A DNA stretch of 64,000 nt from Chlamydiota bacterium (GTDB lineage Bacteria; Chlamydiota; Chlamydiia; Chlamydiales; SM23-39). The translations under genes and the position numbers were made by a program. The stretch is from assembly GCA_038534095.1 (NCBI GenBank), contig JBCAXK010000001.1:10172-74171 (forward strand), read 5' to 3'. Under the pieces are notes generated by a model, which was not told the DNA's origin, searched no databases, and saw only the letters and a list, made by a program, of their open reading frames with translations. Positions 812 through 47,597 of this stretch are shown here, in pieces (within the stretch, counting starts at the first letter, position 1; the number at the start of each line of letters is the position of its first letter).

Positions 812-1032
812 AGGATAGAACTTCCCTCCTTCATAAGGAAAAAATTTTAATAAAAAGGTTGTCATTCTACTCTTATGTACGTAAAAATGCTACAAAAAAG
901 GTAGGTCATTAGATCCTCAAAAACCCTATCCTACTTTGGATTCTTGGCTAGAGCCGGGGAAAAGTCAGCTCGCATGAAGAACGTTGAAAAAATATAGCGC
1001 AAAATTCTGGCAAGATCACTTTGAAACAGCTT

Positions 1033-1476
1033 CTAGATAAAGTAAATCAAGCTGCTTACTTTCCTTTCTAGATTACAACTACAAGTCCACAGTTCCTTGG
1101 TGAAAAAATTGAGACAAAGCCCTGCAAGCGAGGTCATACGAACCGACACAAATACAATTTCAGATGCAATGTGTACAGGCAAAAAGGAAAGAGAGCTATA
1201 TAAAAGAGTAATAGATGTTGTGAACTCACAAATAAGGGCAATTTTAGGGTATTTGGCAAGTAGCGCGCTGAAAATAGGATGGACAAGCGCGTGCACAACG
1301 GTTGTTAAGGCAGAAAGGCCCCCTTTGATCAATACGCCCACACAAGAATAGGCAGACAGAAAAATCATCGGAACATTGCACGTCCAAGTAACGAACGTTC
1401 CTAAAGCAGCGTTTTCAAGCGTATTTTTTAGCGCGCATTGTCGGTAGTTTGGAACACAAGAGCTTGGCATAAACAC
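1033..1476 (-). CDS. hypothetical small hydrophobic/membrane protein (147 aa)
   Basis: ORF-track protein with several hydrophobic stretches (VPMIFLSAYSCVGVLIKGGLSALTTVVHALVHPIFSALL...). No recognisable motif. A competing antisense ORF exists at 1097..1351. Confidence 0.35.
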   Translation of the reverse strand: MFMPSSCVPNYRQCALKNTLENAALGTFVTWTCNVPMIFLSAYSCVGVLIKGGLSALTTVVHALVHPIFSALLAKYPKIALICEFTTSITLLYSSLSFLPVHIASEIVFVSVRMTSLAGLCLNFFTKELWTCSCNLERKVSSLIYFI

Positions 1477-1610
1477 CCTAAGAATACTATTTCTTCAAAA
1501 ATCTCGCCCATTCTATGAATGCGAATCTATTTTTTACAAGGATAGATCTTGCTTACTGATGAAAAATACTGATCCAAAATACTGTGACAAGCCCTTCGTG
1601 CTCACGATCT

Positions 1611-2297
1611 TCACGAGCTACTCTCTATCGAGCGGATTTCGAAAGGCAGATCGTAGACAACTAAGCCCTTCCCCTCAACATTTACGCTCCAATTTTTCGA
1701 GGAGGTTTTGTTGCGTAGCGACAGATTCTGTTCTAAAGAAAGTCTATTTCCTGTAAGAGGCCATGTTAGACCTGTTGAATAACAGACCATTTCTGGGAAA
1801 GGGAGAAGAGAGACATTGGTACCTACCGGGCTTTTCCCGTAAAATATTTCATTAGCAAGGGGAACGCCTACTTTGATGATCGTTCTATTTTTGTGTTGTT
1901 GCGCATCTAAAAAAGTCACTGTTCTAGGCTCTTTTTCCTGCATCACGATATAGAAGTTCCCTAAAATATGATCAAATTCTCCACCATTGACCCCCAATAC
2001 AAGAGTAGGACGTTTTCCTTGATTGTAAGTAAATTGCAAAGACTTTTGAAAGTCTGTGGTCGTTTGCTCTTCAATCAACTGGTAACGCTCTTTGCACCGG
2101 TCCATGATACAAGAATCCCCGTCTCCCACAACGTATTGGGGAGAAATGCCGATCGCTCCCAAACTATCAGCAGCTCCATCAGCAGCCACAAGAAAAGGAG
2201 CCTTTGCAAGGTGTCGTACAAAGGGATTCCAATCCAGCAAACCATCGAGAACAATGATACTTTTTGCTTGAGCAAAAAGCAGGTCAATCTCGTACAC
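1611..2297 (-). CDS. thiN: thiamine pyrophosphokinase (TPK)
   Basis: GDGDS (compare the GDFDS motif), TTDFQKSL, and LGVNGGEFDHILGN (compare GGRxDHxLxN). The C-terminal thiamine-binding-like region is STGLTWPL...LSLRNK. The length of 228 aa is typical for a TPK. Confidence 0.85.
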   Translation of the reverse strand: MYEIDLLFAQAKSIIVLDGLLDWNPFVRHLAKAPFLVAADGAADSLGAIGISPQYVVGDGDSCIMDRCKERYQLIEEQTTTDFQKSLQFTYNQGKRPTLVLGVNGGEFDHILGNFYIVMQEKEPRTVTFLDAQQHKNRTIIKVGVPLANEIFYGKSPVGTNVSLLPFPEMVCYSTGLTWPLTGNRLSLEQNLSLRNKTSSKNWSVNVEGKGLVVYDLPFEIRSIESSS

Positions 2298-2544
2298 GAT
2301 ACCTTCGAGAAAGAATCAAAAGAGTAGAAGAAAAAATAGTCATCAAGATGTTTGTGACCCAAATAGCCGTTGCATCGATCAAAATGCCGTAAATGACCCA
2401 GCTAAGAGAGCAGATGAACAAATTCCACAACATACCAGGAGATAGATCGGTAGAAGAGCGGGTTTGGTAGGTCCGGTAAATTTGGGGTAAAAGGGAGATG
2501 GTTGAAGTAACCATGGCAATAAGTCCAATGACGTTAGCAAACAC
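2284..2544 (-). CDS. SemiSWEET / PQ-loop family 3-TM transporter (86 aa)
   Basis: Three hydrophobic helices with a PQ motif in TM1 (VIGLIAMVTSTISLLPQIYRTYQTRSSTDLSPGML...WVIYGILIDA...TNILM...). Size and motif spacing match bacterial SemiSWEETs. Its stop overlaps the TPK start by 14 nt. Confidence 0.8.
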   Translation of the reverse strand: MFANVIGLIAMVTSTISLLPQIYRTYQTRSSTDLSPGMLWNLFICSLSWVIYGILIDATAIWVTNILMTIFSSTLLILSRRYRVRD

Positions 2545-2765
2545 AAAAATCCTTTATCTTGATTTTATCAAACAGACACAAAAAAGCACGAAAAATTCTT
2601 AAGGACCTTTGCAGCTTTCCCAAAAAATCGATTTTGGTGACCATATTAGTCGGCTTGTAGAAATCCCCCCTTATCCCAGTTGCGCTGTTTGGAAAACGAT
2701 GACACATTTTCTCAAATAAGAACAATTTGGGCCCTTTTGAACAAATCTAGACCCAACGCTGCGCA

Positions 2766-2802
2766 AGAGAATAAAGGTTCCCTATTTTGGAGTTTATTCT
2801 CT
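2766..2802 (-). terminator. 10-bp stem-loop about 22 nt downstream of the ATPase stop (non-canonical, no U-run)
   Basis: agagaataaa (2766-2775) pairs with tttattctct (2793-2802) around a 17-nt loop. No T-tract follows on either strand, so terminator function is uncertain. Confidence 0.3.
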
Positions 2803-2824
2803 CATGATTTCTGGGCGCCTTACT

Positions 2825-5485
2825 TTAATCCCAATGTTTCACGCGCCATTTTCCAAAAGAAAAAATTTTAGGATAAAGCCGTTTGCGGATAGACTCTAAG
2901 CAAAACATCAACGCGCCAGGCAAAAGACAAAGACCCCAATCTTGTAAAGAGAGGGGGACCGTTTGGAAAATCTTCCCTAAAAAAGGGACATAGAGCAGCA
3001 AAAACAAGAGACCAAAAGCGACCAAACCCATCAGAGCAAGAGATGGATTGGAGAAAAAGCCTAAAGCAAAAGGGGATCTTTCATCAGACCGAACGTGAAA
3101 AGCTAAGAACCATTCAAAAAGCACAATCATTGCAAAGGTGACGCTGCGCGCTTTTACAAGAGTTTCCTCGTAGAAAGAAAATAGGGCAAAAGCAGACAGG
3201 CTCATCAAAATCGATAGAAAAAGAATGCGCCAGATCATACCAGGATAGAGAAGGCCCACACGAGCATCTCTTGGAGGGTGATGAAGCTCATGACCTGTTT
3301 TCGGCTCTAGCCCCAAAGGAATCGCTATTAAGGAGCCTGTAATCAGATTGATCCACAAAATTTGTATCGGTTCTAAAGGAGCTTTTTGCCAAGCAAAAAA
3401 TACTAGGAAAATCGTTCCCACTTCTCCAAAGCACGTAGTGAGTAAAAATAGCGCAGAAGAGCGTATCCGGGTAAAAATAGAGCGTCCCTCTTCAATGCAA
3501 GCTAGAATCGTCTCAAAGGCGTCGTCTACTAAAATCAGGTCAGAGGCTTCTTTAGCGACATCGGTCCCCTCTTTCCCCATAGCAATTCCGATATCGGCTT
3601 TCTCAAGGGCTGGGGCGTCATTGACGCCATCTCCAGTCATCGCAAGAATGTGGCCGTCGCTTTTTAAAGCGCTGACAATACGCAGTTTATGCATCGGTTC
3701 AATCCGAGCGAAAATCGAGGTCTCTTCCGCTTTTTCTACAAGCTCTTTCGGAGAGAGCTTCTCAATGTCTGTTCCGATCAGAGCGCTTTGCGCTTTCAAT
3801 CCTAGAGATTGCCCAATATGCATCGCTGTTTCTGGGCTATCTCCTGTCAAAATCAAGACAGTTATACCAGCCTGCCTGCACTCATCGACCGCTTGCTTCA
3901 CCCCTTCTCGAAGGGGGTCGCTCATACCATAAAAACCGACAAAAATCGCGTCCCGAGTCAGCTCTTTTTCTCCAATCTTTTTACTATAGGTGTTCTGGGC
4001 TTTGTAAGCTCCTCCTAGAACCCGCATGCCACTTTTTGCTAACTGTTTTGCCTCTTCTAGAAGGGCGTTTTTCCTATCTGGAGAAAGCGGCTCGATACCC
4101 CTCTTACCAAGGTACTTTGTACAAAAAGAGACGATCACCTCGGGAGATCCTTTCAAAAGCACTTCTATCTCTCCGTCAAGATCGCAAAGAGTAGCCATGT
4201 AACGCCGTTCACTAGAAAAAGGCACTTCAAAAAGGCGCTTGTTTGTTTTTGGCAAAAACGGAGAAAAGAGTTCATGCAACGTTTTGATCAGGCCCACTTC
4301 TGTCGGATCCCCGAGATATTCTGCGCCCCTTTCTTGCTCTTTTTTTACTGCATTGTTGCACAAATAGGCAATGTCGATCAGCTTACGGCAAGCCCTACTT
4401 TGTAGATCAGTTTTTGTGACTTGATGGCACGCTAGCTTCTCCTCAGCTGTAATCAGATCGGTCCACTGCATCGCATTATTCGTCAACGTTCCTGTTTTAT
4501 CTGTGCAAATCACATCGGCAGAACCTAATGTTTCAACCGCTACCAGTTTCCGAATGAGCCCTTTTTTGCGAGCAATCCGGCGCACCCCTACAGCAAGGAC
4601 GGCTGTGACCGTTGCCGGCAATCCTTCTGGAATGGCAGCTACCGCGAGCGCAATCGTTAAAAGAGAAATTTCGATCCAGGTGAGCCCAAGAAAAGCGCCT
4701 AAACCAATGAAGCAAAGGGCAAAAAGCATCACAACAACCAGCATAAATTGGCTAAGCTGTTTGATGTTTCTCTGCAAAGGGCTTGGTTCTGTTTCCATTT
4801 CTTGGATACTACTTGTGATTTTTCCAAGGGCTGTATCCATCCCTGTAGCTGTGAGATAGGCCAGTCCTTTTCCAGAGGTCACTAACGTCCCTGAAAAAAC
4901 CATATTTGTTTGGCTAGCAAGGGGGGTGTTTTCTGGAAGGGCTTCCTGACTTTTTTCTACAGGGAGCGACTCCCCTGTTAAAAAAGATTCATTCATCTGT
5001 AGTTCGTAGACTTCTACTAATCTAGCATCTGCAGGCACTTTATCCCCTGCTTCTAAAAGTAAAAGATCGCCAGGTACTAGCTCTTTTGTAGGAACGGTTT
5101 CTACTTCCCCTTTTCTTCGCACTCTGGCTGAAAGCGTTGTAAGTTTTAACAAAGCAGCGACAGCATTTTCTGCCTTGGCTTCCTGAATAAATCCTACAAG
5201 CACCATGATGAGTGTTGTGAGAAAAATCACGCCCCCTTCTAAATAAGATCCTAGAAAACACTTGATCAAGCAGGCGACAAAAAGAATCCCCACCAAAGGG
5301 TTTACGCACTGCAGAAAAAAGATCTGTAACAGATGTTTTTTCTTTTTTACTTTGAGTTCATTGCTTCCAAATTTCTTTTGAAGAGCGTTCACTTTTTCTG
5401 GACTTAAGCCCTCTTTCTCAACAAAAAACTCAGCAACATTTTTGGTATGCCACATGACTTCCCCCCATTTTTTCAGTAAATGCAA
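2825..5485 (-). CDS. P-type cation-transporting ATPase (type II, Ca2+/Mg2+-ATPase-like)
   Basis: ICTDKTGTLT phosphorylation motif, TGES, MTGDGVNDAPAL, and about 10 TM segments. The ORF-track start at 5485 is a TTG. An ATG at 5455 (MWHTKNV...) preceded by GGGGGAAG is an alternative start. Confidence 0.95.
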   Translation of the reverse strand: MHLLKKWGEVMWHTKNVAEFFVEKEGLSPEKVNALQKKFGSNELKVKKKKHLLQIFFLQCVNPLVGILFVACLIKCFLGSYLEGGVIFLTTLIMVLVGFIQEAKAENAVAALLKLTTLSARVRRKGEVETVPTKELVPGDLLLLEAGDKVPADARLVEVYELQMNESFLTGESLPVEKSQEALPENTPLASQTNMVFSGTLVTSGKGLAYLTATGMDTALGKITSSIQEMETEPSPLQRNIKQLSQFMLVVVMLFALCFIGLGAFLGLTWIEISLLTIALAVAAIPEGLPATVTAVLAVGVRRIARKKGLIRKLVAVETLGSADVICTDKTGTLTNNAMQWTDLITAEEKLACHQVTKTDLQSRACRKLIDIAYLCNNAVKKEQERGAEYLGDPTEVGLIKTLHELFSPFLPKTNKRLFEVPFSSERRYMATLCDLDGEIEVLLKGSPEVIVSFCTKYLGKRGIEPLSPDRKNALLEEAKQLAKSGMRVLGGAYKAQNTYSKKIGEKELTRDAIFVGFYGMSDPLREGVKQAVDECRQAGITVLILTGDSPETAMHIGQSLGLKAQSALIGTDIEKLSPKELVEKAEETSIFARIEPMHKLRIVSALKSDGHILAMTGDGVNDAPALEKADIGIAMGKEGTDVAKEASDLILVDDAFETILACIEEGRSIFTRIRSSALFLLTTCFGEVGTIFLVFFAWQKAPLEPIQILWINLITGSLIAIPLGLEPKTGHELHHPPRDARVGLLYPGMIWRILFLSILMSLSAFALFSFYEETLVKARSVTFAMIVLFEWFLAFHVRSDERSPFALGFFSNPSLALMGLVAFGLLFLLLYVPFLGKIFQTVPLSLQDWGLCLLPGALMFCLESIRKRLYPKIFSFGKWRVKHWD

Positions 5486-5858
5486 TAGAAAAAAATTTGT
5501 CTAGAAGATCTAGAGTTTTAAATCACAAAGGAGCCTTTTTTTAGGGAGATCATCGTAAGGAACGCGCAGTAAAAAATTGTTGAGGTTACAAAATGCTCCT
5601 AGATACGCTTTCTGAAAGCGTCAAAAAAGGCCGTAAGAACTACGTCTCTAGATTGATACCAAGAGCGAAAAATAGACAAGAAGAGTATCTACGTTTATTT
5701 CGGCGCTCACTTTGATAAAGATAGATCCAAGACGATGCATTTCTCTCAATATTTCAAGCCCAAAAAGGAGCTCTTCTAACCTAGGGTGAAAAGTAGGAAT
5801 CATGCTTCAGCAAGAAACCACGCTCTAAATCCAAATCGAACGAATAGGAGCTAGAAAA

Positions 5859-5899
5859 GTGGCGCAACCCAAACCTTCAATTGGCTTGCGCCACTTTTT
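5859..5899 (-). terminator. bidirectional Rho-independent-type terminator downstream of the M48 peptidase gene
   Basis: gtggcgcaa (5859-5867) pairs with ttgcgccac (5886-5894). It is flanked by an A-run at the 5' side and a T-run (5895-5899) at the 3' side. It lies about 120 nt past the stop at 6016. Confidence 0.6.
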
Positions 5900-6015
5900 A
5901 TAGGGATTTTCGAGCAAAGATCCCTGCTTACTAACATAATCGCAAGAAACCCTTTACAAAGCGACTTTATAACTGGTCGTAAGATTTGCAATCATTAGAG
6001 AGCATCGCCATCTTT

Positions 6016-23585: not shown

Positions 23586-25271
23586 TTGTTAATATTCCTT
23601 GGTTTATTAAAAATACGTTCCTCCAAACACATTAGGTACGCAATGTCAACGATCCATTTTTCCTCAGACTCTTCTAAAGAATACTACTTTTGCTCTATAG
23701 AGGCCGCAGAGAAATTTGCGCAAACAAGCCGACCAATCGATGTAATTTCATTATTCAACATCGGAACTAAACCGGCAAAATTCCAGTACATGATCGCTGT
23801 TTGCAAGTCGATAGGACAAAAGGTTTTTACTCAGAAAAACGCGCCTATTGTACAAGAAACTCTTAAACGTTGCTTCTCGCTGAGCGCTTCCCCTTCAGAT
23901 GAAAAACGTACCGTTTTTTGGGTCGATCTAATTGCCGGTTTCTTAAACAAGGAAGATACACATGAACTAGGCTTTTCTTTGCTAGAAGAAAAATACAGTG
24001 AAGAGATCGAGAACAATGTGAACCAAGCTCCAAAATTGCCAGAATCTGTTGCAAAGAAGCTTGCAAATAGTAGTAATCAGGACGTAAAAAAATATTTTTC
24101 TGGAGCTTTTCGTTATTGTAAGAAAGTAAACTGTATACAGCTTTTTTGTTTCGACGTTTTTAATTGTTTATGTAGAGAAAGTCGAGATTCTTTATTTATT
24201 GATTTATTCAACACCATTCCAAAAAATGGCGCGCACCATATCCTTGGCAAAAATGTTGTAACGCTAGCCGTGCACTATGGTTTATTCCGATTTTTAAGTG
24301 ACTTTTGTTTTTTTTTGGAACAACAATACGAGGGGGCAATAGCTCAAGAAAAACCCAGTTTCCTCTCTTATCATGAGCTGCTAGATACAATTTTCCGTTT
24401 TCAAAGCAAAGAATTCACAGAAAAGTTCTTCAAATCGTTCAACTTGGATAACAATATTAAAACAGCATGTTTTGTAAAATGTATCCGTAAAATGTTTCAA
24501 AATCCTGCGTTTCAGGATACAATGTGTATCCTTGCAGATCGTTACCCAGGTAAGATGATCGGATGGTTTGAGGAAAAATTTCAACACATATCAAATACAT
24601 TTTCTGAAGCCTTATTATTTGGAATGCTATCGGATGAATCTAATTTTCTAACTCCTCTGCAAGCTTCCGTTACTTCTCTTGATGATGTGAAAAATCAATA
24701 TTGGAGACTGCGAAAAATTGCGCTGTGTCCTGAAAAAGAAATAGACGATTTATATTTAAATCCAGACATAGTCATCGAAAAGTATTTACATAAAAGTGAA
24801 AGGGAAAGCATCGAGAAACTATCAAACCAAGATCGCTCGGAATTATTTTGTATTTTAAATCAATTAGCTGTTGCTAATCTCCCTCTAATTTCAAAGTATT
24901 TCTCTTGTTTATGTGATGAAATGGAATTTACCATGCAAGTTGATAAAAGTATCAATCTTTCTACAATCAAAGACCCCATCATTGTTGATTTTTTGAAGGA
25001 ATTGGACGCAGTAAAAATGTTTAACAACACCAATAATCCTAGTACTCTGCATTTTGTGTTATGGTTCCGTGCCCAACAGGTAGATAAAAACAAAAGCTTT
25101 GAACTTCTGCTCTCGGCTTCAGATCATGGCTCACAAGATACCCCTACAAGCGTAGAGGAGTTAAGCACGCCGAGCCATTTAGGAAAAAGAGCTTATCCTT
25201 TTGAGGAAAAGAAAAAAGACCCAAAAAAACCCGCTCCTTTAAGTAATGAGCAAAACGGGATAGAAAGATAG
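23586..25271 (+). CDS. hypothetical protein (about 542-561 aa), helical, orphan
   Basis: Long uninterrupted ORF. The track start is a TTG, and the ATG at 23643 (MSTIHFSSDSS...) is more likely. The C-terminal tail is basic (GKRAYPFEEKKKDPKKP). No catalytic motif recognised. Confidence 0.6.
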   Translation: MLIFLGLLKIRSSKHIRYAMSTIHFSSDSSKEYYFCSIEAAEKFAQTSRPIDVISLFNIGTKPAKFQYMIAVCKSIGQKVFTQKNAPIVQETLKRCFSLSASPSDEKRTVFWVDLIAGFLNKEDTHELGFSLLEEKYSEEIENNVNQAPKLPESVAKKLANSSNQDVKKYFSGAFRYCKKVNCIQLFCFDVFNCLCRESRDSLFIDLFNTIPKNGAHHILGKNVVTLAVHYGLFRFLSDFCFFLEQQYEGAIAQEKPSFLSYHELLDTIFRFQSKEFTEKFFKSFNLDNNIKTACFVKCIRKMFQNPAFQDTMCILADRYPGKMIGWFEEKFQHISNTFSEALLFGMLSDESNFLTPLQASVTSLDDVKNQYWRLRKIALCPEKEIDDLYLNPDIVIEKYLHKSERESIEKLSNQDRSELFCILNQLAVANLPLISKYFSCLCDEMEFTMQVDKSINLSTIKDPIIVDFLKELDAVKMFNNTNNPSTLHFVLWFRAQQVDKNKSFELLLSASDHGSQDTPTSVEELSTPSHLGKRAYPFEEKKKDPKKPAPLSNEQNGIER

Positions 25272-35432: not shown

Positions 35433-36409
35433 ATCTTGCTCTTCGATGGATCTTTTGCCGATATTTTCTCTCTTGGCTTAGCTACTCCCTATGTTTAGTA
35501 GTATTTTATATGCTTGTAGAGCTCCTGCTGGCTTTCCCCCATACGCATGCTAGCGCTCCTACCACTACAGCGTTTGCGATCTTGGCCTTCCGCGCTCTTG
35601 AGCAAAGCCATCTTATTGCGATCATCGCATTTTATCTCAGTTTATTGACCATAGCAGCGCAAATAGAATCACAACAAGAATGGCTCCCCCTTGCGATCAG
35701 TGGCCTTACAAGAAAGCGGTTTTTTTTCCCCTCCCTTCTTTTAGCCTGTCTTTTGAGCCTGCTTTGCATGGTACACGAAGAGTACCTGCAGCCTTATGCT
35801 CATGAACAGCTCTGTTTTTGGGAAAAGAGGCCCCCTTCTCCAAACGCTCTTTACTTTGAAGATGCTAGCGCTCTTCTTTACGCAACCAAAAGCGACCAGA
35901 ATATCTATCGGGTCTATTGGATCAAAAATGACCAAGAACTGTGGCGTATGGAGCAATTCGACCTGCAGAAAAGAAGGGGCAACTTTGTCGATCATTTCGT
36001 AAAAAATGCAGAAGGACTTTTTGTAAAAAGCGGTTCTTGGGAACAACGATCTTTTCACGAAATGCCCCTTTTTACCTGTGGCAGAGGGGGCCTACGTACC
36101 TTATGTGAAGAGATTAGTTCTTTCGGCTATCCGACAAAACGTTCGATGAGGGGCGCTGGGGCTACCATTGCGGGGGGATGCTTTCCTCTTGTAGCCTCCC
36201 TTCTCCTTTTCCCTTTTTGCGCACGCTTTGAAGAGAAAACCTCAAGGAGAAAAGCAGGCCGGTACGGACTTGTGGGAGGGATTCTCCTCTATTTTGTACA
36301 AACAGCGCTACTAACCTGTATCCCCCTTTCGGAAAGCTTGTGGCTCACTTTTTCTCTTATCTACTTGAGCAGCTGGGGGATTGGGATTGGTTTATACTTA
36401 CGCGGCTAA
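35429..36409 (+). CDS. lptG: LptF/LptG (YjgP/YjgQ) family permease
   Basis: Same architecture as its neighbour, translationally coupled to it. From memory, the position next to tilS-ftsH matches chlamydial synteny. Confidence 0.65.
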   Translation: MNLALRWIFCRYFLSWLSYSLCLVVFYMLVELLLAFPHTHASAPTTTAFAILAFRALEQSHLIAIIAFYLSLLTIAAQIESQQEWLPLAISGLTRKRFFFPSLLLACLLSLLCMVHEEYLQPYAHEQLCFWEKRPPSPNALYFEDASALLYATKSDQNIYRVYWIKNDQELWRMEQFDLQKRRGNFVDHFVKNAEGLFVKSGSWEQRSFHEMPLFTCGRGGLRTLCEEISSFGYPTKRSMRGAGATIAGGCFPLVASLLLFPFCARFEEKTSRRKAGRYGLVGGILLYFVQTALLTCIPLSESLWLTFSLIYLSSWGIGIGLYLRG

Positions 36410-39400
36410 TTTCTGCGCTTAAAGCTTCTAGAGGGTTTTCATAATAGCGCTTTGGATTTTTTGTCACCCACATCCCATGCTCAGGCGAGTAATACCGATT
36501 TTTGTAATACACCTTATTCGAATAGGAATCTACGCGGGATGAAGCAAAGCGCCACGGATTGATCCAAGGCACATCGAGCACGTTGATTTCCTCACCAAAC
36601 AGGGTGAAGTTGGACTGCTCAACTAGCGCAAGATTTTCTCCAAGAAGACCTACGGTATTGCCAAAAAAATCTTGTAACGGGTAGTAGATTTCATCATAAA
36701 GCTCTAAACAGATCATACGAGGAAATGGACTCACATCTGGATTTTTTAGGACGCGCATTTCGACCAAAGAACCTTTTTGATAACGACCAATCTCTAGCTC
36801 CCCATCATAGAGAAACTGGGTATCATACTTCTTCTTCCAGTGGGTCTCATCGGGCTCAAATACGCTCATGCCAATCCTTCTATGATACCCGTCGTAATCG
36901 TAATGTATATTGAACTTGTCCTCAATCGCGTAGCAAATCAAACGGTCGAGCGCATCGTAGGTATACAAAATTGTTTTGTTCCCAAGAATTTCTGAACAAA
37001 GATTTCCATTTTTATCATAAATTAACTTAATTCTTGTTCCCTTTCCAATCTCTTGGTGATGCTCTTTTTCTCCGAGGTCCTGACCCCACAGTGGCTTGCG
37101 TATCCAGTCAGAATAGTCCTTAGACACAATGCCGCTCTCTTGTAAGGGATGCCCTAAAGGATCGTACAAGAAGAGATCTTCTTCTTTATGACCATAAATT
37201 GTGGTTTCAAGTGTTTCGATCGCTCCACTTGGACCGGTAGCTAGAATTTTTTGTCGAAACTTTTCTTGAGACTTTTCGATCAATCTACCACCCTGGTCAT
37301 ACTGGTATAGCGTATCAAAAGAGGAGCGCTCCCGAAGCACATTGCCTGCTAAATCATATTGCAAACACTGGTGTGAAAACACCTTTTCTCCATAATGATC
37401 ATAACGGGAAATAGAGCTGAGATAGATAGGATCGTATTTATACACAACGCGTGAGGTGTCGGGGAGGGAGATTTCTGTTTTTTGCCCCATCGAATTGTAA
37501 TCAAACTGCAAAAAAAGACCATTTTCTAATATCTCTTTTGCAAGGCGCCCTTCTCGATTATATACTCTCGCGGTTTTTTGCCCTGTGAGATGATCCTGAC
37601 AACCAAGAGACCTCCCATACGCATCGTAAAAGTACGTGTAATCAACAGTCCCATCAGAAGAGAAAAGACGCGTCAAGCGATCTTGAAAATCATAGTTCCT
37701 TGTAATCGCTACTCCATCGGGTTTAAACGTCTCAAACAACTTCCCTGTAGGTGTATAGGTGTAGTAATACTGCCGTTCTAATTCTGAATCAGCAAACTCA
37801 ATCAGGGATTGAATCTGATTCATCGTATTGTACTCATAGGCATTTTTGGTCACCCTTTTTTCTCCCATTGGAGTAAAGAGCGTTTCTGCATGCTCAATAA
37901 GATTGCCTCGAAAGTCGTAAAAATAGGCATCTTCTTCGAGAAGGCTCTCACCATGCCTTTTTTTGCTACTAACAAGACGTCCTAAAGCGTCGCGGAGTTC
38001 TACCACTTCGATTCCTGAAGGATTTTTCCTAGTCTGCTCTTCAAGAATAAGACCGTTTTCTAATTGATGCTTTTCATAGAAATAGTCGGTGCGTCTCCCT
38101 TCAGGGTCGATGGTATGGGTGAGCCTCAAAAATCCATCATAGGCTCTTGTTGTTAATGAAGGTGCATTATTAACGTAAGAAACGGTATTGATACAACAGT
38201 CCATTGGATCATACCGGTACGATTCTCGGAATAAAATCCGATTTCTTGGATAGTCTTCCTGGATAGACTTTTCGATCACCCTACCCAAAAAGTCCCTTGT
38301 ATATTCCTCATGAAACTGCGTTCCTGTATTATGATGCCGCACTTTTGTTAAACGCCCTAACGGATCGTACTCATAAAACTCGATATTTTGTCCCATTTTT
38401 TTCCCAACTTTTTTCCCCGAAAAATCGTAGGTATACAAAATAGGATTTCCCTCTTCATCTGTTTCTGACAAAAGGTGAAACGCGTCGTAGGTTTTTCGTC
38501 TTTCTTGTAAGACTTTTCCAGTAGGAGAAACGACTTGTTCCGATAAGCAGCGACCAAATCCATCGTATGCGTAACGGGTAACGACTCCTAAAGCATTGGT
38601 GATACTCTGCAACCGACCTGCTGAGTCATAGGTGCGTAGTTCTTTGGTTCCATCAGCATATTCTATTGAGGCCAATTGATCATCTAGCGTGTAGGTCATG
38701 GCCGTTTCTTGTTTTTTTTCAAACCACTCCTCGATCAATCGACCATAGGAATCATAATGGGAAGTATAGGTGGGCCTACGAACGACGCCACTTTTTGTGC
38801 TGACTGCAGGGGTAATGCGTTTCACCATCTGCCCAAGACGGTTATACTGATAATTCTCTACTTGGCCCAAGTAATTTTTCTTCTTGATCATCCTTCCTAA
38901 AAGATCGTAGGAAAAACGTTCATGGTGCGTTTCTTCTTCATCAGAAATGGTCTCTTTTAAGATCACCTGCCCTAACGAATTGAACGACCGTAACGTTTTC
39001 CTCTTCCCTTGAATCTCTTCTTCTCCGATCCTCCGATGATGCTCATCATGAAACACCATGTTTGCGTAAAGAGCATTTGACTCCCGTTTTAGAAGTCCCT
39101 TCTCATCGTAAGCAACCTTTTCTGCGTAGCAATATGCGCCCGTTGCGTCGTACACCGCTTTTTTGGTCACTTTTCCTAAATGGTTGTATTGAAACGTTTC
39201 TTTACCCGAAAAAACGTCCTGCTGGTTTTTAGCATCGTAGTACCAATGCTCTTTGATATCTACAATGCCAATAAAGGGCGCTTCCGTTCTCAAAAGATAT
39301 TTGGTGATCTGCCTCTGCGTAACTCCGTCTAAATCGTTTTTTGCAAAACTTTTCCCATCATCTACAATCTGAGCAATCCGTTGTCCATGGGCGTCGTATT

Positions 39401-41048
39401 CGTAAAAGGTTCTTCTAGAAAACTGCTTTTCTTTCTCTATCTTGGTTTGTAAAAGATTGGTACTGCTATCATAGTCATAAGCAATTTGCAAACCTGCACG
39501 CTTCTCTACAAGGAGTAAATTTTTTCCATCATCCGAATAGATTTTCCTATGAGAACGGGACTCAGCGTTGTTAGGATCAGGGAGCCGGTCATACAAGTAC
39601 ATGGGAGGCGCTTGCCCGGAAATATTTCCATATTCTCTCTTTTCTTGTACATTGCCTGCCTGATCGTAAAAATACCTTGTTGCTTTTAAACAGTTCCCTT
39701 CTGCGTCTACCCGGGCCTCTGCAAGAAGATACCGCAGTTTACGTAAGCTGCCTAAGCTCTTTTTTTGCTCACTTGTCAGGTGCATTTCTGCTGCAAGCCT
39801 ATTTAACGAAAATTTCGTATCCTCTCCCCAACAAAACAGATCTTTATGAGACAATATTTGTCGATCTGACTCTAAATAATAGTGTTCCACCGCATCTAAA
39901 CGCAAAAAGGGATCGTAACGGTAGACCGTTTTGTTTCCCTCAGCATCGTAGACGTCCGTGTGTCCTTCAGTTTTTCCATAATTGCCAGGATAATATTCAA
40001 AAGAGCGGAGAATTTGTACGGTTCCGTCGGGCATTTTCCTGGCCAAGCTAACAGCTTTTTTGTGTGTTTTACCTTTGCTTCTACTGTAACGGAGTGTGGT
40101 CACATCTCCATTTGGAAGAGTGCGCTCATGAATGAGCGCGGTGCCAGGATGATAGGTAAACGTCTTTTTCGGCTCTGTTGTGCTCACAATCGAATAAAGC
40201 TGCTTAGCTTCTGCATGTTTCGCGCGAAAGCTATAGGTGATGCTTTGTCCATCTGAGGTTTCTACTTGGACAATATCTTGCCCTTGCCCCCAAAAGTGGA
40301 AACGAATCCAAGCAAAGATGACCTCCCCTGTAGCGCTTTTGGACTGAATTTCACTCAAACGGATTGATCGAAGTGAGTCGTAGGTGTAACAAATACGGTT
40401 TTTATTCGGAAGGATCTCTTCTTCCAAACGGTACGTAAAAGCTTCTCTTTGCCCCGCATTTTCTACCGAATCGAGAACCCTTCGGTATCTTCTTATATGT
40501 CCAGACGGAGCAGTGATGGTAAATCCCGTCCCTTTGTAATCCATTTGCAACTGATTGTAACGCGTTGCGTAGTACTTAGAAGGCTTTTTATATCCGTAAT
40601 GGGCGAGATTGCGCAAAAAAACGACCGGGTCAACACAAAAATCTAAAATTTTTGATCCTTCTGATTTTCGTCGATACATATACTCTACAGGGATCAAATT
40701 CTTTTCTAAGACCTGGAGTCGCATGTTGTATTCGTGTGCTTTACGACCTAAAGCATTTTCCGGATGTTTCCAAGTGCTTTTTGCGAATAGATACTGATTG
40801 GCAAACCACCCTTGAAACACCTGTTCCTCATCAGAAAACGTACTGAAATGGCGCAAATCAAACTCGAGAGGCTCAGCTCCTTGCACAGTCACAAGTTCTT
40901 GCAAAACATAATCCCCTGTTATGGGATTGACGCATCCGTCCACCGCAAAATCAGCATCTTGCTGATACGCAGAAAAAAATGCGGGAGTGGGACAAGACGC
41001 AAAGAGGGTAAAAACAGAAAAAAGGGTACATAGGCATAAAACGCGCAT
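36357..41048 (-). CDS. YD/RHS-repeat protein (1563 aa) with signal peptide/possible lipobox and RHS core but no C-terminal toxin domain
   Basis: More than 30 YD repeats (YxYDxxGRL-like: YEYDPLGRLTKV, YAYDGFGRCLSE, YQYDQGGRLIEK and others). The N-terminus is MRVLCLCTLFSVFTLFASC. The RHS core end is NPWRFASSRVDSYSNKVYYKNRYYSPEHGMWVTKNP, followed by only about 31 aa. Confidence 0.9.
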   Translation of the reverse strand: MRVLCLCTLFSVFTLFASCPTPAFFSAYQQDADFAVDGCVNPITGDYVLQELVTVQGAEPLEFDLRHFSTFSDEEQVFQGWFANQYLFAKSTWKHPENALGRKAHEYNMRLQVLEKNLIPVEYMYRRKSEGSKILDFCVDPVVFLRNLAHYGYKKPSKYYATRYNQLQMDYKGTGFTITAPSGHIRRYRRVLDSVENAGQREAFTYRLEEEILPNKNRICYTYDSLRSIRLSEIQSKSATGEVIFAWIRFHFWGQGQDIVQVETSDGQSITYSFRAKHAEAKQLYSIVSTTEPKKTFTYHPGTALIHERTLPNGDVTTLRYSRSKGKTHKKAVSLARKMPDGTVQILRSFEYYPGNYGKTEGHTDVYDAEGNKTVYRYDPFLRLDAVEHYYLESDRQILSHKDLFCWGEDTKFSLNRLAAEMHLTSEQKKSLGSLRKLRYLLAEARVDAEGNCLKATRYFYDQAGNVQEKREYGNISGQAPPMYLYDRLPDPNNAESRSHRKIYSDDGKNLLLVEKRAGLQIAYDYDSSTNLLQTKIEKEKQFSRRTFYEYDAHGQRIAQIVDDGKSFAKNDLDGVTQRQITKYLLRTEAPFIGIVDIKEHWYYDAKNQQDVFSGKETFQYNHLGKVTKKAVYDATGAYCYAEKVAYDEKGLLKRESNALYANMVFHDEHHRRIGEEEIQGKRKTLRSFNSLGQVILKETISDEEETHHERFSYDLLGRMIKKKNYLGQVENYQYNRLGQMVKRITPAVSTKSGVVRRPTYTSHYDSYGRLIEEWFEKKQETAMTYTLDDQLASIEYADGTKELRTYDSAGRLQSITNALGVVTRYAYDGFGRCLSEQVVSPTGKVLQERRKTYDAFHLLSETDEEGNPILYTYDFSGKKVGKKMGQNIEFYEYDPLGRLTKVRHHNTGTQFHEEYTRDFLGRVIEKSIQEDYPRNRILFRESYRYDPMDCCINTVSYVNNAPSLTTRAYDGFLRLTHTIDPEGRRTDYFYEKHQLENGLILEEQTRKNPSGIEVVELRDALGRLVSSKKRHGESLLEEDAYFYDFRGNLIEHAETLFTPMGEKRVTKNAYEYNTMNQIQSLIEFADSELERQYYYTYTPTGKLFETFKPDGVAITRNYDFQDRLTRLFSSDGTVDYTYFYDAYGRSLGCQDHLTGQKTARVYNREGRLAKEILENGLFLQFDYNSMGQKTEISLPDTSRVVYKYDPIYLSSISRYDHYGEKVFSHQCLQYDLAGNVLRERSSFDTLYQYDQGGRLIEKSQEKFRQKILATGPSGAIETLETTIYGHKEEDLFLYDPLGHPLQESGIVSKDYSDWIRKPLWGQDLGEKEHHQEIGKGTRIKLIYDKNGNLCSEILGNKTILYTYDALDRLICYAIEDKFNIHYDYDGYHRRIGMSVFEPDETHWKKKYDTQFLYDGELEIGRYQKGSLVEMRVLKNPDVSPFPRMICLELYDEIYYPLQDFFGNTVGLLGENLALVEQSNFTLFGEEINVLDVPWINPWRFASSRVDSYSNKVYYKNRYYSPEHGMWVTKNPKRYYENPLEALSAEISRVSINQSQSPSCSSR

Positions 41049-46751: not shown

Positions 46752-47597
46752 TCAACAGGAATGTCTCGAAAAGATTACGTGAACTATGCGCTCATCAGTC
46801 GTTGTACTACGTTGAGCCTGCGGCGAAGAAGGTATTCCGTATTCAGTCCTAGACGGAGAACTGGAAACCAGCTTCAACTGAGGTGCGACGTATTGAGCAC
46901 CAGGTTGAGGATTGAGAGCCAATGCCAAAGGAATTGTAGAATGTCCAGCGATAGGTTGAGGATTTGGAGGCAGTGTCAACTGATGTGTAGGATATTGAGT
47001 CATACCCTGAGTACACGGACATTGAGAGGTGGGATGTTGAGCGATAGGTTGACGATTGGAATTAGATCCTAAAAGATCGGGATCAGGTTCTAACTCAGGC
47101 ATTTCATCGTAATTTTCCTCGGTAGAGAGGAGGGCTGTATTTTGCTGCTTTTGAGTAGTAACTAGACTCTTCGAAGCTCTAGGATCAGCTTCTAAAGCAG
47201 ACATGCCATGGGATTTTTGCGTGGAAGGAACTGAGGATGTTTTTTCCTCCTGTTTATTAGTCGTTGGATCGGTTCTTGTCCGTTTGTTGGGTTGTTCTTC
47301 GCTTTTTGAAACACCTGATTGCTTGTTTGCGAAGTAGGCTTCTGTACCATCAGACAAGCGGAACGACCGTTTTTTTATTATTAAGGCAGGGCGGTATCGG
47401 TGTAAGCCGAAATGTAGAATTGTTTCTATTTTTCGAGCTTGTCTTAACATCTCCGGATTTGTGGGTCCGTGCAGTGCCGATGCGATGTCTAGATCAGAAT
47501 CTTTCGCTAGATTAGTCGGAACACTCATGGGCATAGTCTCTCTAGGAGTAGTTTGGTAATAATTTGTATTGAGATGGATAGGGGGGGTGGAACTCAT
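46752..47597 (-). CDS. low-complexity P/Q/T-rich protein; N-terminal module paralogous to the 1081-aa ankyrin protein
   Basis: I prefer the start at the ATG at 47597 (MSSTPPIH...) because it matches MSSIPPFR... of the gene at 53708. The track start is 47633. Shared pieces are GPTNPEMLRQARKIE versus GNPTDYVTVRQTAREIE, and KRTRTD versus KRRRTD. The C-terminus has degenerate N(R/P)QP(I/G)A(Q/G)(H/Y) repeats. Confidence 0.6.
   Translation of the reverse strand: MSSTPPIHLNTNYYQTTPRETMPMSVPTNLAKDSDLDIASALHGPTNPEMLRQARKIETILHFGLHRYRPALIIKKRSFRLSDGTEAYFANKQSGVSKSEEQPNKRTRTDPTTNKQEEKTSSVPSTQKSHGMSALEADPRASKSLVTTQKQQNTALLSTEENYDEMPELEPDPDLLGSNSNRQPIAQHPTSQCPCTQGMTQYPTHQLTLPPNPQPIAGHSTIPLALALNPQPGAQYVAPQLKLVSSSPSRTEYGIPSSPQAQRSTTTDERIVHVIFSRHSC

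Follow-up and report, generated by a model that had tools for sequence, protein, structure and literature searches.

A conserved gene pair of SemiSWEET and thiamine pyrophosphokinase in Chlamydiota as a predicted minimal vitamin B1 salvage unit

Why should a membrane protein from a family known for carrying sugars be encoded directly ahead of, and in overlap with, the gene of a vitamin kinase? The question is raised by a locus in a 64,000-nucleotide (nt) stretch of a Chlamydiota bacterium (contig JBCAXK010000001.1), called the window here, in which a SemiSWEET gene and a gene for thiamine pyrophosphokinase (TPK) share a few nucleotides. Our answer, drawn from genomic context, is that the pair is most probably a thiamine facilitator together with the kinase that traps its substrate, i.e., a minimal vitamin B1 salvage unit, and that a distinct SemiSWEET subfamily is likely to transport vitamin B1 rather than sugar. 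What we infer is that the substrate is thiamine, which way it is transported, that the protein works as a uniporter and that it forms a dimer. The features concerned, given in amino acids (aa) and transmembrane (TM) helices where they encode protein, are as follows.

2284-2544, minus strand: SemiSWEET (PQ-loop/MtN3) gene, 86 aa, three TM helices, GTG start (open reading frame (ORF) and translation).
1611-2297, minus strand: TPK gene, 228 aa, GTG start (ORF and profiles).
2284-2306, minus strand: junction, read from the sequence, with GAAGG at 2302-2306, the TPK GTG at 2295-2297 and the SemiSWEET TGA at 2284-2286.
2545-2824, minus strand: 280-nt leader, from the stop of a P-type ATPase gene to the SemiSWEET start, with AAGGA at 2550-2554.

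An initial annotation of this DNA, made from its letters, had described an 86-aa protein with three TM helices and a PQ motif, a 14-nt overlap of its gene with the next one, and a TPK carrying GDGDS and GGEFDHILGN; all three descriptions agree with what is read here, to which the minus strand is added. The SemiSWEET GTG start is preceded by a Shine-Dalgarno sequence, AAGGA, while its TGA stop falls inside the TPK ORF, giving the overlap at 2284-2297. A Shine-Dalgarno-like GAAGG stands ahead of the TPK GTG, whose position is backed by alignment with ten orthologues, and the junction is predicted to be a site of translational coupling between the two genes. In a simple scan of positions 1000-6000, no sigma-70-like promoter was found on the minus strand in the leader; promoter and terminator sites in that interval are no commoner than in shuffled sequence, and are uninformative on co-transcription with the P-type ATPase gene.

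Sequence, motif and fold all place the window protein among the SemiSWEETs (TCDB 2.A.123). It matches the Pfam families PQ-loop (PF04193, 45.9 bits, cut-off 22) and MtN3_slv (PF03083, 31.5 bits, cut-off 23.7), and has both the family size of about 80-100 aa, with 86 aa in a single three-helix bundle, and the Pro-Gln hinge of the first TM helix, with P20-Q21 invariant (residues 18-35 read LLPQIYRTYQTRSSTDLS). An AlphaFold2 model of the monomer, built from 28 clade members, places helices at residues 2-28, 36-56 and 59-83 with a mean pLDDT of 82. In Foldseek, the best match of this model was 4RNG, with a template-modelling score (TM-score) of 0.89 and a root mean square deviation of 1.2 Å, and further solved SemiSWEETs also superposed on it (4QNC, TM-score 0.82; 4X5M, 0.79-0.81). 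The list of Foldseek matches comprises SemiSWEET, SWEET, MPC and cystinosin entries, with no Pnu entry among them; neither does the protein match PF04973 (NMN_transporter), and it has three TM helices, so it does not belong to the Pnu family.

The partner is equally well defined. The window TPK scores 93.4 bits against TIGR01378, thiamine diphosphokinase (cut-off 76.4), matches Pfam TPK_catalytic (PF04263) with E = 8e-15, and is 100% identical to a protein named thiamine diphosphokinase by NCBI in a metagenome-assembled genome (MAG) of Chlamydiota. It resembles the solved bacterial TPKs 2OMK, 3K94 and 3LM8; the match to the B1-binding domain (PF04265) is weak, at 17.4 bits against a cut-off of 22, and this region aligns to 3K94. 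GDGDS lies at residues 58-62 and GGEFDHILGN at 105-114, and in an alignment of 11 orthologous sequences the motifs AADGA, GDxDS, QxxTDxxK and GxExDH are invariant (residues D40, G41, A42, D59, D61, S62, T81, D82, K85, E107, D109 and H110). From these sequence features, the enzyme is predicted to be the one that traps thiamine.

The first test proposed for such a pair, conservation of its neighbourhood, gave a clear result, since the pair recurs across Chlamydiota and in MAGs labelled Rickettsiaceae and Holosporaceae, and is thus not unique to this genome. In total, 24 distinct SemiSWEET sequences were found in 26 tabulated loci, every one with TPK directly downstream, in the same order, and with the two genes either overlapping by 4-41 nt or standing no more than 2 nt apart (26/26). 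Within Chlamydiota, the pair is present in Simkaniaceae, Neptunochlamydia, Anoxychlamydiales and unclassified MAGs. The flanking genes vary by lineage and the SemiSWEET-TPK pair alone is kept; the pairing is far above chance. A genome scan with an alignment of four SemiSWEET sequences yielded seven GTDB species loci with the pair, including two complete Simkaniaceae genomes and a Rickettsiaceae-labelled MAG, and the pair was also read on the contigs of proteins P0003, P0004, P0008, P0083 and P0072.

Homologues of the SemiSWEET fall into two groups, namely a close group at least 48% identical to the window protein and general SemiSWEETs at 32-45%, the latter from Nitrospirota, archaea and other lineages. 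TPK lies directly downstream on the same strand at every readable locus of the close group, and was not found as a neighbour at the three loci of the general SemiSWEETs P0109, P0080 and P0095 (40-45% identical). Conversely, scanning metagenomes with a TPK profile gave 80 loci, 15 of which have a SemiSWEET ORF immediately upstream, and all 15 of these TPKs score at least 175 bits against the clade profile. No TPK of that scan below about 170 bits has an upstream SemiSWEET, and there is a single high-scoring TPK (L034) with adequate upstream sequence yet without a SemiSWEET. A Holosporales TPK (P0158, locus L102) likewise has no SemiSWEET, only a divergent gene of the major facilitator superfamily (MFS) upstream, from which it follows that the link is not universal in Holosporales. 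At another locus, L103 of a Holosporaceae MAG, a SemiSWEET ORF (2736-3035) directly upstream of TPK was missed by the public gene call; such short genes are probably under-annotated, so that surveys of called genes would undercount the pair.

A second line of evidence comes from regulation. When all scans are pooled, a thiamine pyrophosphate (TPP) riboswitch (RF00059) abuts the SemiSWEET start in 21 of the 24 distinct pairs. In the first Rfam scan it was present in 11/12 loci with 63-77 bits (gathering score 54.3), Rfam detected it in 7 further metagenomic loci, and our own covariance model R1, built from ten TPP riboswitches of pair loci, recovered it in 6 more loci beyond Rfam. The 3' end of the aptamer reads GGAGGA, followed after about 7 nt by AUG, and helix P1 joins the 5' flank to this spacer and to the first two letters of the start codon, A and U (alignment columns 115-116). 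Helix P1 is 86% paired, with compensatory changes in four of its eight pairs, and the whole structure is 94.9% paired compared with 35-52% when the partners are slid. As judged from this alignment, the riboswitch of the relatives is a compact translational OFF switch: because P1 includes the A and U of the start codon, binding of TPP would block translation of SemiSWEET and, via coupling, of TPK.

The riboswitch is missing from three pairs, namely those of the window, of its closest relative (L006/L022, 76% identical) and of L103. The initial annotation had seen no convincing THI-box upstream, which holds for the window and fails for most of its relatives. In the window leader (2545-2824) no TPP riboswitch was detected at the Rfam gathering threshold, with Rfam at E <= 10 over 2450-2950, or with R1, and in L006 there is none either, including any remnant. 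The idea of a hidden or degenerate THI element in the window lineage was rejected, as both Rfam at E <= 10 and R1 were blank there and likewise in L006. The riboswitch has been lost in the window sublineage, where expression of the pair is probably constitutive or under other control.

Third, in related TPK loci the position of the SemiSWEET is taken by other transport genes, which is non-orthologous displacement: the slot is held by PnuT in one locus, and a ThiB-like protein stands alongside TPK in others. The former locus, L074, has the order TPP riboswitch, Pnu-family transporter (PF04973, E = 1.8e-21), TPK. In L053 and L076, the riboswitch controls a gene for a ThiB-like binding protein transcribed divergently from TPK, and in L082 and L086 it is likewise divergent from TPK, with the controlled gene running off the contig. 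In two more loci (L079, 2312-2416; L039, 2391-2492) the riboswitch lies directly before TPK with no transporter gene between them.

Fourth, the two proteins occur as a natural fusion. P0267, of 319 aa, joins in frame a PQ-loop domain and a C-terminal TPK_catalytic domain; the identical protein is present on four contigs, and since two of its loci (L106, 3001-3960, and L107, 3001-3960) belong to different assemblies (ENA and JGI), an artefact of assembly is improbable. The C-terminus of SemiSWEETs is cytoplasmic, and SemiSWEETs and TPKs form homodimers, so that such a fusion would be topologically sensible. No riboswitch was found at the fusion loci L106 and L107. The neighbours of P0267 include ankyrin-repeat and YceG proteins, and the gene upstream overlaps its start.

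The linked SemiSWEETs also differ from the others in their residues. When the 24 linked sequences were compared with 20 general ones, among them three solved structures, P20, Q21, D33, S35, W49, Y52, G53 and N65 were common to both groups, the pocket residues W49 and N65 (W48 and N64 in the L. biflexa protein, Lb) being invariant in all 44. At about 12 positions the groups differ with almost non-overlapping residue usage. The linked clade has (with the general residues in brackets) T13 (C/L), S14 (T), L18 (F), I22 (V), S30 (E/H/Q), L39 (Y/F), N41 (I/V), C/T45 (G), S46 (I/M/V), S/A/T60 (P), W62 (I), T64 (A), M68 (S/T) and L75 (I). In Lb numbering, the changes from the sugar type to the linked type are T13 to S, F17 to L, Y38 to L, M40 to N, G44 to C/T, V45 to S, P59 to S/A/T, I61 to W, A63 to T and T67 to M. 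Of these, Lb T13 is the pocket Thr, and F17 and Y38 form the intracellular gate (PMC4309421, PMC5972207); the changed sites further include residues at a distance of one turn of the helix from the Trp and Asn of the pocket, and the conserved Pro near the extracellular gate (roles according to the same two papers). The window protein carries T13, S14, L18, S30, L39, N41, C45, S46, A60, W62, T64, M68 and L75, that is, the whole signature, and is thus a true member of the clade despite the loss of the riboswitch. When 1.84 billion cluster representatives were searched, matches at E <= 0.001 came from 4,971 clusters; among the best 150 of these 4,971 (clusters at 50% identity), 24 have the core signature and 36 the general G45 and P60, where the subfamily signature was taken as S30, L39, N41, C/T45, S46, no Pro at 60, and usually W62 and M68.

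The initial annotation had placed the pair in a lineage unable to make thiamine, and for related chlamydiae this is reported: a Simkania MAG synthesises menaquinol and otherwise no vitamin or cofactor (PMC11809670), and Algichlamydia is without thiamine biosynthesis, as reported for other chlamydiae (PMC11317633). For this genome the statement is judged from the 64-kb window, where no thi gene was found among the ORFs of at least 150 aa. One ORF, 62591-63664 on the minus strand, encodes an FAD oxidoreductase of the DAO family that was considered as ThiO, its best NCBIfam match; with 60 bits it is far below the cut-off of 250.8 and gives no evidence for thiazole biosynthesis.

Put together, these observations would fit the following mechanism. 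The 86-aa SemiSWEET, presumed to form a homodimer with six TM helices as in solved SemiSWEETs, would serve free thiamine as a path of facilitated diffusion through the inner membrane, and since thiamine is positively charged, the membrane potential would reinforce its entry as a further driving force. TPK, made from the same mRNA by coupled translation, would convert the incoming thiamine to thiamine diphosphate, which would be unable to leave the cell, so that uptake would become directional and the cofactor would be made in a single step. In most relatives, TPP would then feed back through the riboswitch and close the loop. The initial annotation had suggested just such a facilitator trapped by TPK, and the conserved pair, the riboswitch, the displacement and the fusion all support it, with transport itself being predicted.

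The obvious objection is that the protein may be an ordinary glucose or sucrose SemiSWEET, with the adjacency to TPK either meaningless or loosely linking sugar catabolism to TPP-dependent enzymes. Every characterised SemiSWEET carries sugars, public annotation names the relatives "SemiSWEET family sugar transporter", and the pocket Trp49 and Asn65 of sugar carriers are retained in the clade. We nevertheless consider this very improbable, as 24 distinct sequences keep the pair while the flanking genes differ, and a shut-off of a sugar importer by TPP would have no rationale, yet the riboswitch accompanies 21/24 pairs. The corresponding place in related TPK loci is occupied by PnuT or a ThiB-like protein, TPK is also found fused in frame to a SemiSWEET, and the roughly 12 positions that separate the clade from sugar-type SemiSWEETs include sites of the gate and the pocket. 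Even less probable, in our estimation, is that the SemiSWEET is a membrane anchor or regulator that carries nothing and places TPK beside some other importer of thiamine or TPP. Its very small size would suit such a role, and the fusion P0267 is compatible with tethering as well as with transport; against it, the full transport apparatus (PQ hinge, pocket Trp and Asn, Tyr-Gly gate) is conserved in the clade, the model superposes on transport-competent structures with a TM-score of 0.89, and sister loci have bona fide transport components (Pnu, ThiB-like) beside TPK.

A closer competitor, although still an unlikely one, is a thiamine-related substrate, be it a precursor (hydroxymethylpyrimidine, HMP, or thiazole), a product of thiamine breakdown, or thiamine in phosphorylated form. 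In other bacteria, TPP riboswitches are said, after Rodionov et al. 2002, to govern transporters of precursors as well, for instance CytX and ThiW. Context cannot separate thiamine from its close analogues, and PnuT also carries oxythiamine and pyrithiamine (PMC5749112). On the other side, TPK, whose substrate is thiamine, is the one enzyme kept beside the transporter; no gene for ThiD, ThiM or ThiE was found in any of the loci examined; related chlamydiae are without a pathway that would use precursors; and import of TPP would make TPK unnecessary.

Several points weigh against thiamine transport and should be set beside the evidence for it, beginning with the fact that thiamine transport by the clade is a prediction from genomic context. 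The retained sugar-pocket residues leave room for residual or dual sugar transport, and no acidic residue is evident in the pocket that would match the thiamine cation. In favour of thiamine, the SemiSWEET pocket, 8-9 by 11 Å, fits a disaccharide (PMC4309421) and would therefore be large enough for thiamine. Characterised SemiSWEETs, however, are low-affinity carriers (PMC4309421), a poor match for scarce free thiamine unless the clade has gained affinity. The window protein also stays below the cut-offs of the NCBIfam models SemiSWEET_2 (58.3 bits, cut-off 80) and SemiSWEET_3 (31.8 bits, cut-off 100), which marks a divergent branch of the family and is silent on the substrate. Finally, the window is without a riboswitch, so that the regulatory argument is borrowed from relatives 48-60% identical, and the evidence on ThiT, PnuT, ThiBPQ and thi genes in this genome comes from the 64-kb window.

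The thiamine facilitator with its trapping kinase can be compared with systems that are already known. PnuT is a thiamine facilitator that uses metabolic trapping, its genes are co-located with kinase genes, it does not carry phosphorylated thiamine, and the Pnu fold has been described as a distant full-length SWEET homologue (PMC5749112); the background given in the initial annotation (facilitation, trapping, clustering with kinases, SWEET-like fold) is correct by the same source. PnuT-TPK modules, such as that with PnuT of Shewanella woodyi (PMC5749112), share the proposed logic of facilitator plus kinase, often with a TPP riboswitch, and the exact arrangement of riboswitch, Pnu and TPK occurs in L074 among the relatives of the window TPK. 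Unlike the core of about 7 TM helices in Pnu proteins, the window protein has 86 aa, three TM helices and a PQ motif, has no PF04973, and would need a dimer to form a pore. With the characterised SemiSWEETs (L. biflexa 4QNC, Thermodesulfovibrio 4RNG, E. coli 4X5M and Bradyrhizobium BjSemiSWEET1 9KAX) it shares family and fold, namely 30% identity, TM-scores of 0.82-0.89, the PQ hinge, the pocket Trp and Asn and the Tyr-Gly extracellular gate, but these proteins carry glucose or sucrose, while the linked clade is found in the thiamine regulon. ThiBPQ, an ATP-binding cassette (ABC) system, and ThiT, the S-component of an energy-coupling factor (ECF) transporter, belong to the same TPP-riboswitch regulon, and a ThiB-like protein lies beside the distant TPK relatives in L053 and L076; in contrast to these ATP-driven, multi-subunit, high-affinity systems, the one proposed here is a single 86-aa polypeptide with no energy-coupling module.

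In the searchable literature, the sole precedent found for a link between thiamine and SemiSWEETs is Jia et al. 2018 (PMC5972207), who showed a SemiSWEET-TPK cluster in Legionella cherrii and suggested on that basis that SemiSWEETs may carry molecules other than sugars. The gene association is the same as ours, treated there in one sentence and one figure panel for one genome, and the paper gives no riboswitch, conservation survey, fusion, residue analysis or assignment of thiamine as substrate. Our literature searches found no paper that combines a riboswitch with SemiSWEET or PQ-loop proteins. The fold and the uptake strategy are already known, and it is the proposed substrate class that is new, with comparative evidence that hangs together unusually well.

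The surroundings of the pair deserve a few remarks. In the Rickettsiaceae-labelled MAG (L009/L104, JAQXDF010000040.1), the riboswitch-SemiSWEET-TPK unit adjoins genes for a type IV secretion system (T4SS) coupling protein and ankyrin-repeat proteins and a gene with a LepB_N domain. Classical Rickettsia have been reported to lack TPK and to import thiamine diphosphate (PMC5615194), and finding the unit in an intracellular bacterium outside Chlamydiota suggests that the module has moved horizontally between bacteria with an intracellular life. In L017, genes for a BioY biotin-transporter component and a NUDIX hydrolase (2823-3826) are directly upstream of the unit, which may be a small vitamin-uptake neighbourhood, and in L030 a 5S rRNA gene (109-217) is immediately upstream of its riboswitch.

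In the window, the gene upstream of the pair, on the same strand and ending 280 nt before SemiSWEET, encodes a P-type cation ATPase of 886 aa (2825-5485, minus strand); its best match is a model of PMR1-type Ca2+ ATPases with 656 bits, below the cut-off of 798, and it is not kept beside the pair in other loci. Just 3' of TPK lies a hydrophobic ORF of 147 aa (1033-1476, minus strand), which has no Pfam or NCBIfam match and is not seen beside the pair elsewhere. The remainder of the window holds chlamydial housekeeping genes, and Rfam found only a tRNA in the window. Other ORFs recorded are an RHS-repeat protein of 1,563 aa, possibly of toxin-delivery type (36357-41048, minus strand), an ORF with a match to the Legionella major outer membrane protein family PF05150 (42410-43537, plus strand, E = 9.6e-17), and four large ORFs without a Pfam match: 53708-56953 (plus strand, 1,081 aa), 23586-25271 (plus strand, 561 aa), 46752-47633 (minus strand, 293 aa) and 51278-52216 (minus strand, 312 aa).

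The physiological roles of bacterial SemiSWEETs are essentially unknown (PMC5972207), and, if the proposed function is true, this would be the first of them to have its physiological substrate defined by riboswitch control, by a kinase of its own and by a naturally occurring fusion protein. The known substrates of SemiSWEETs would then include a vitamin, which is an aromatic cation, a second case of uptake by facilitator plus kinase would be established on a fold similar to that of PnuT, and with 83-98 aa per protomer these proteins would be the smallest vitamin transporters known. Relatives are publicly named "sugar transporter", "PQ-loop repeat-containing protein" or "MtN3 and saliva related transmembrane protein", and the finding would correct a systematic annotation error in which the gene is called a sugar transporter or, as in L103, is left uncalled. 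With its 86 residues and a dozen clade-specific substitutions beside solved structures of the sugar type, the protein is a good system for studies of specificity. Obligate intracellular bacteria that are unrelated to one another (Chlamydiota and the Rickettsiaceae- and Holosporaceae-labelled MAGs) appear to have been reached by the spread of the module, which would explain how they are supplied with thiamine diphosphate from free host thiamine. It would also complete the metabolic maps at a point left blank so far for environmental chlamydiae and some Rickettsiales-like symbionts, which depend on TPP enzymes and have no thiamine synthesis.

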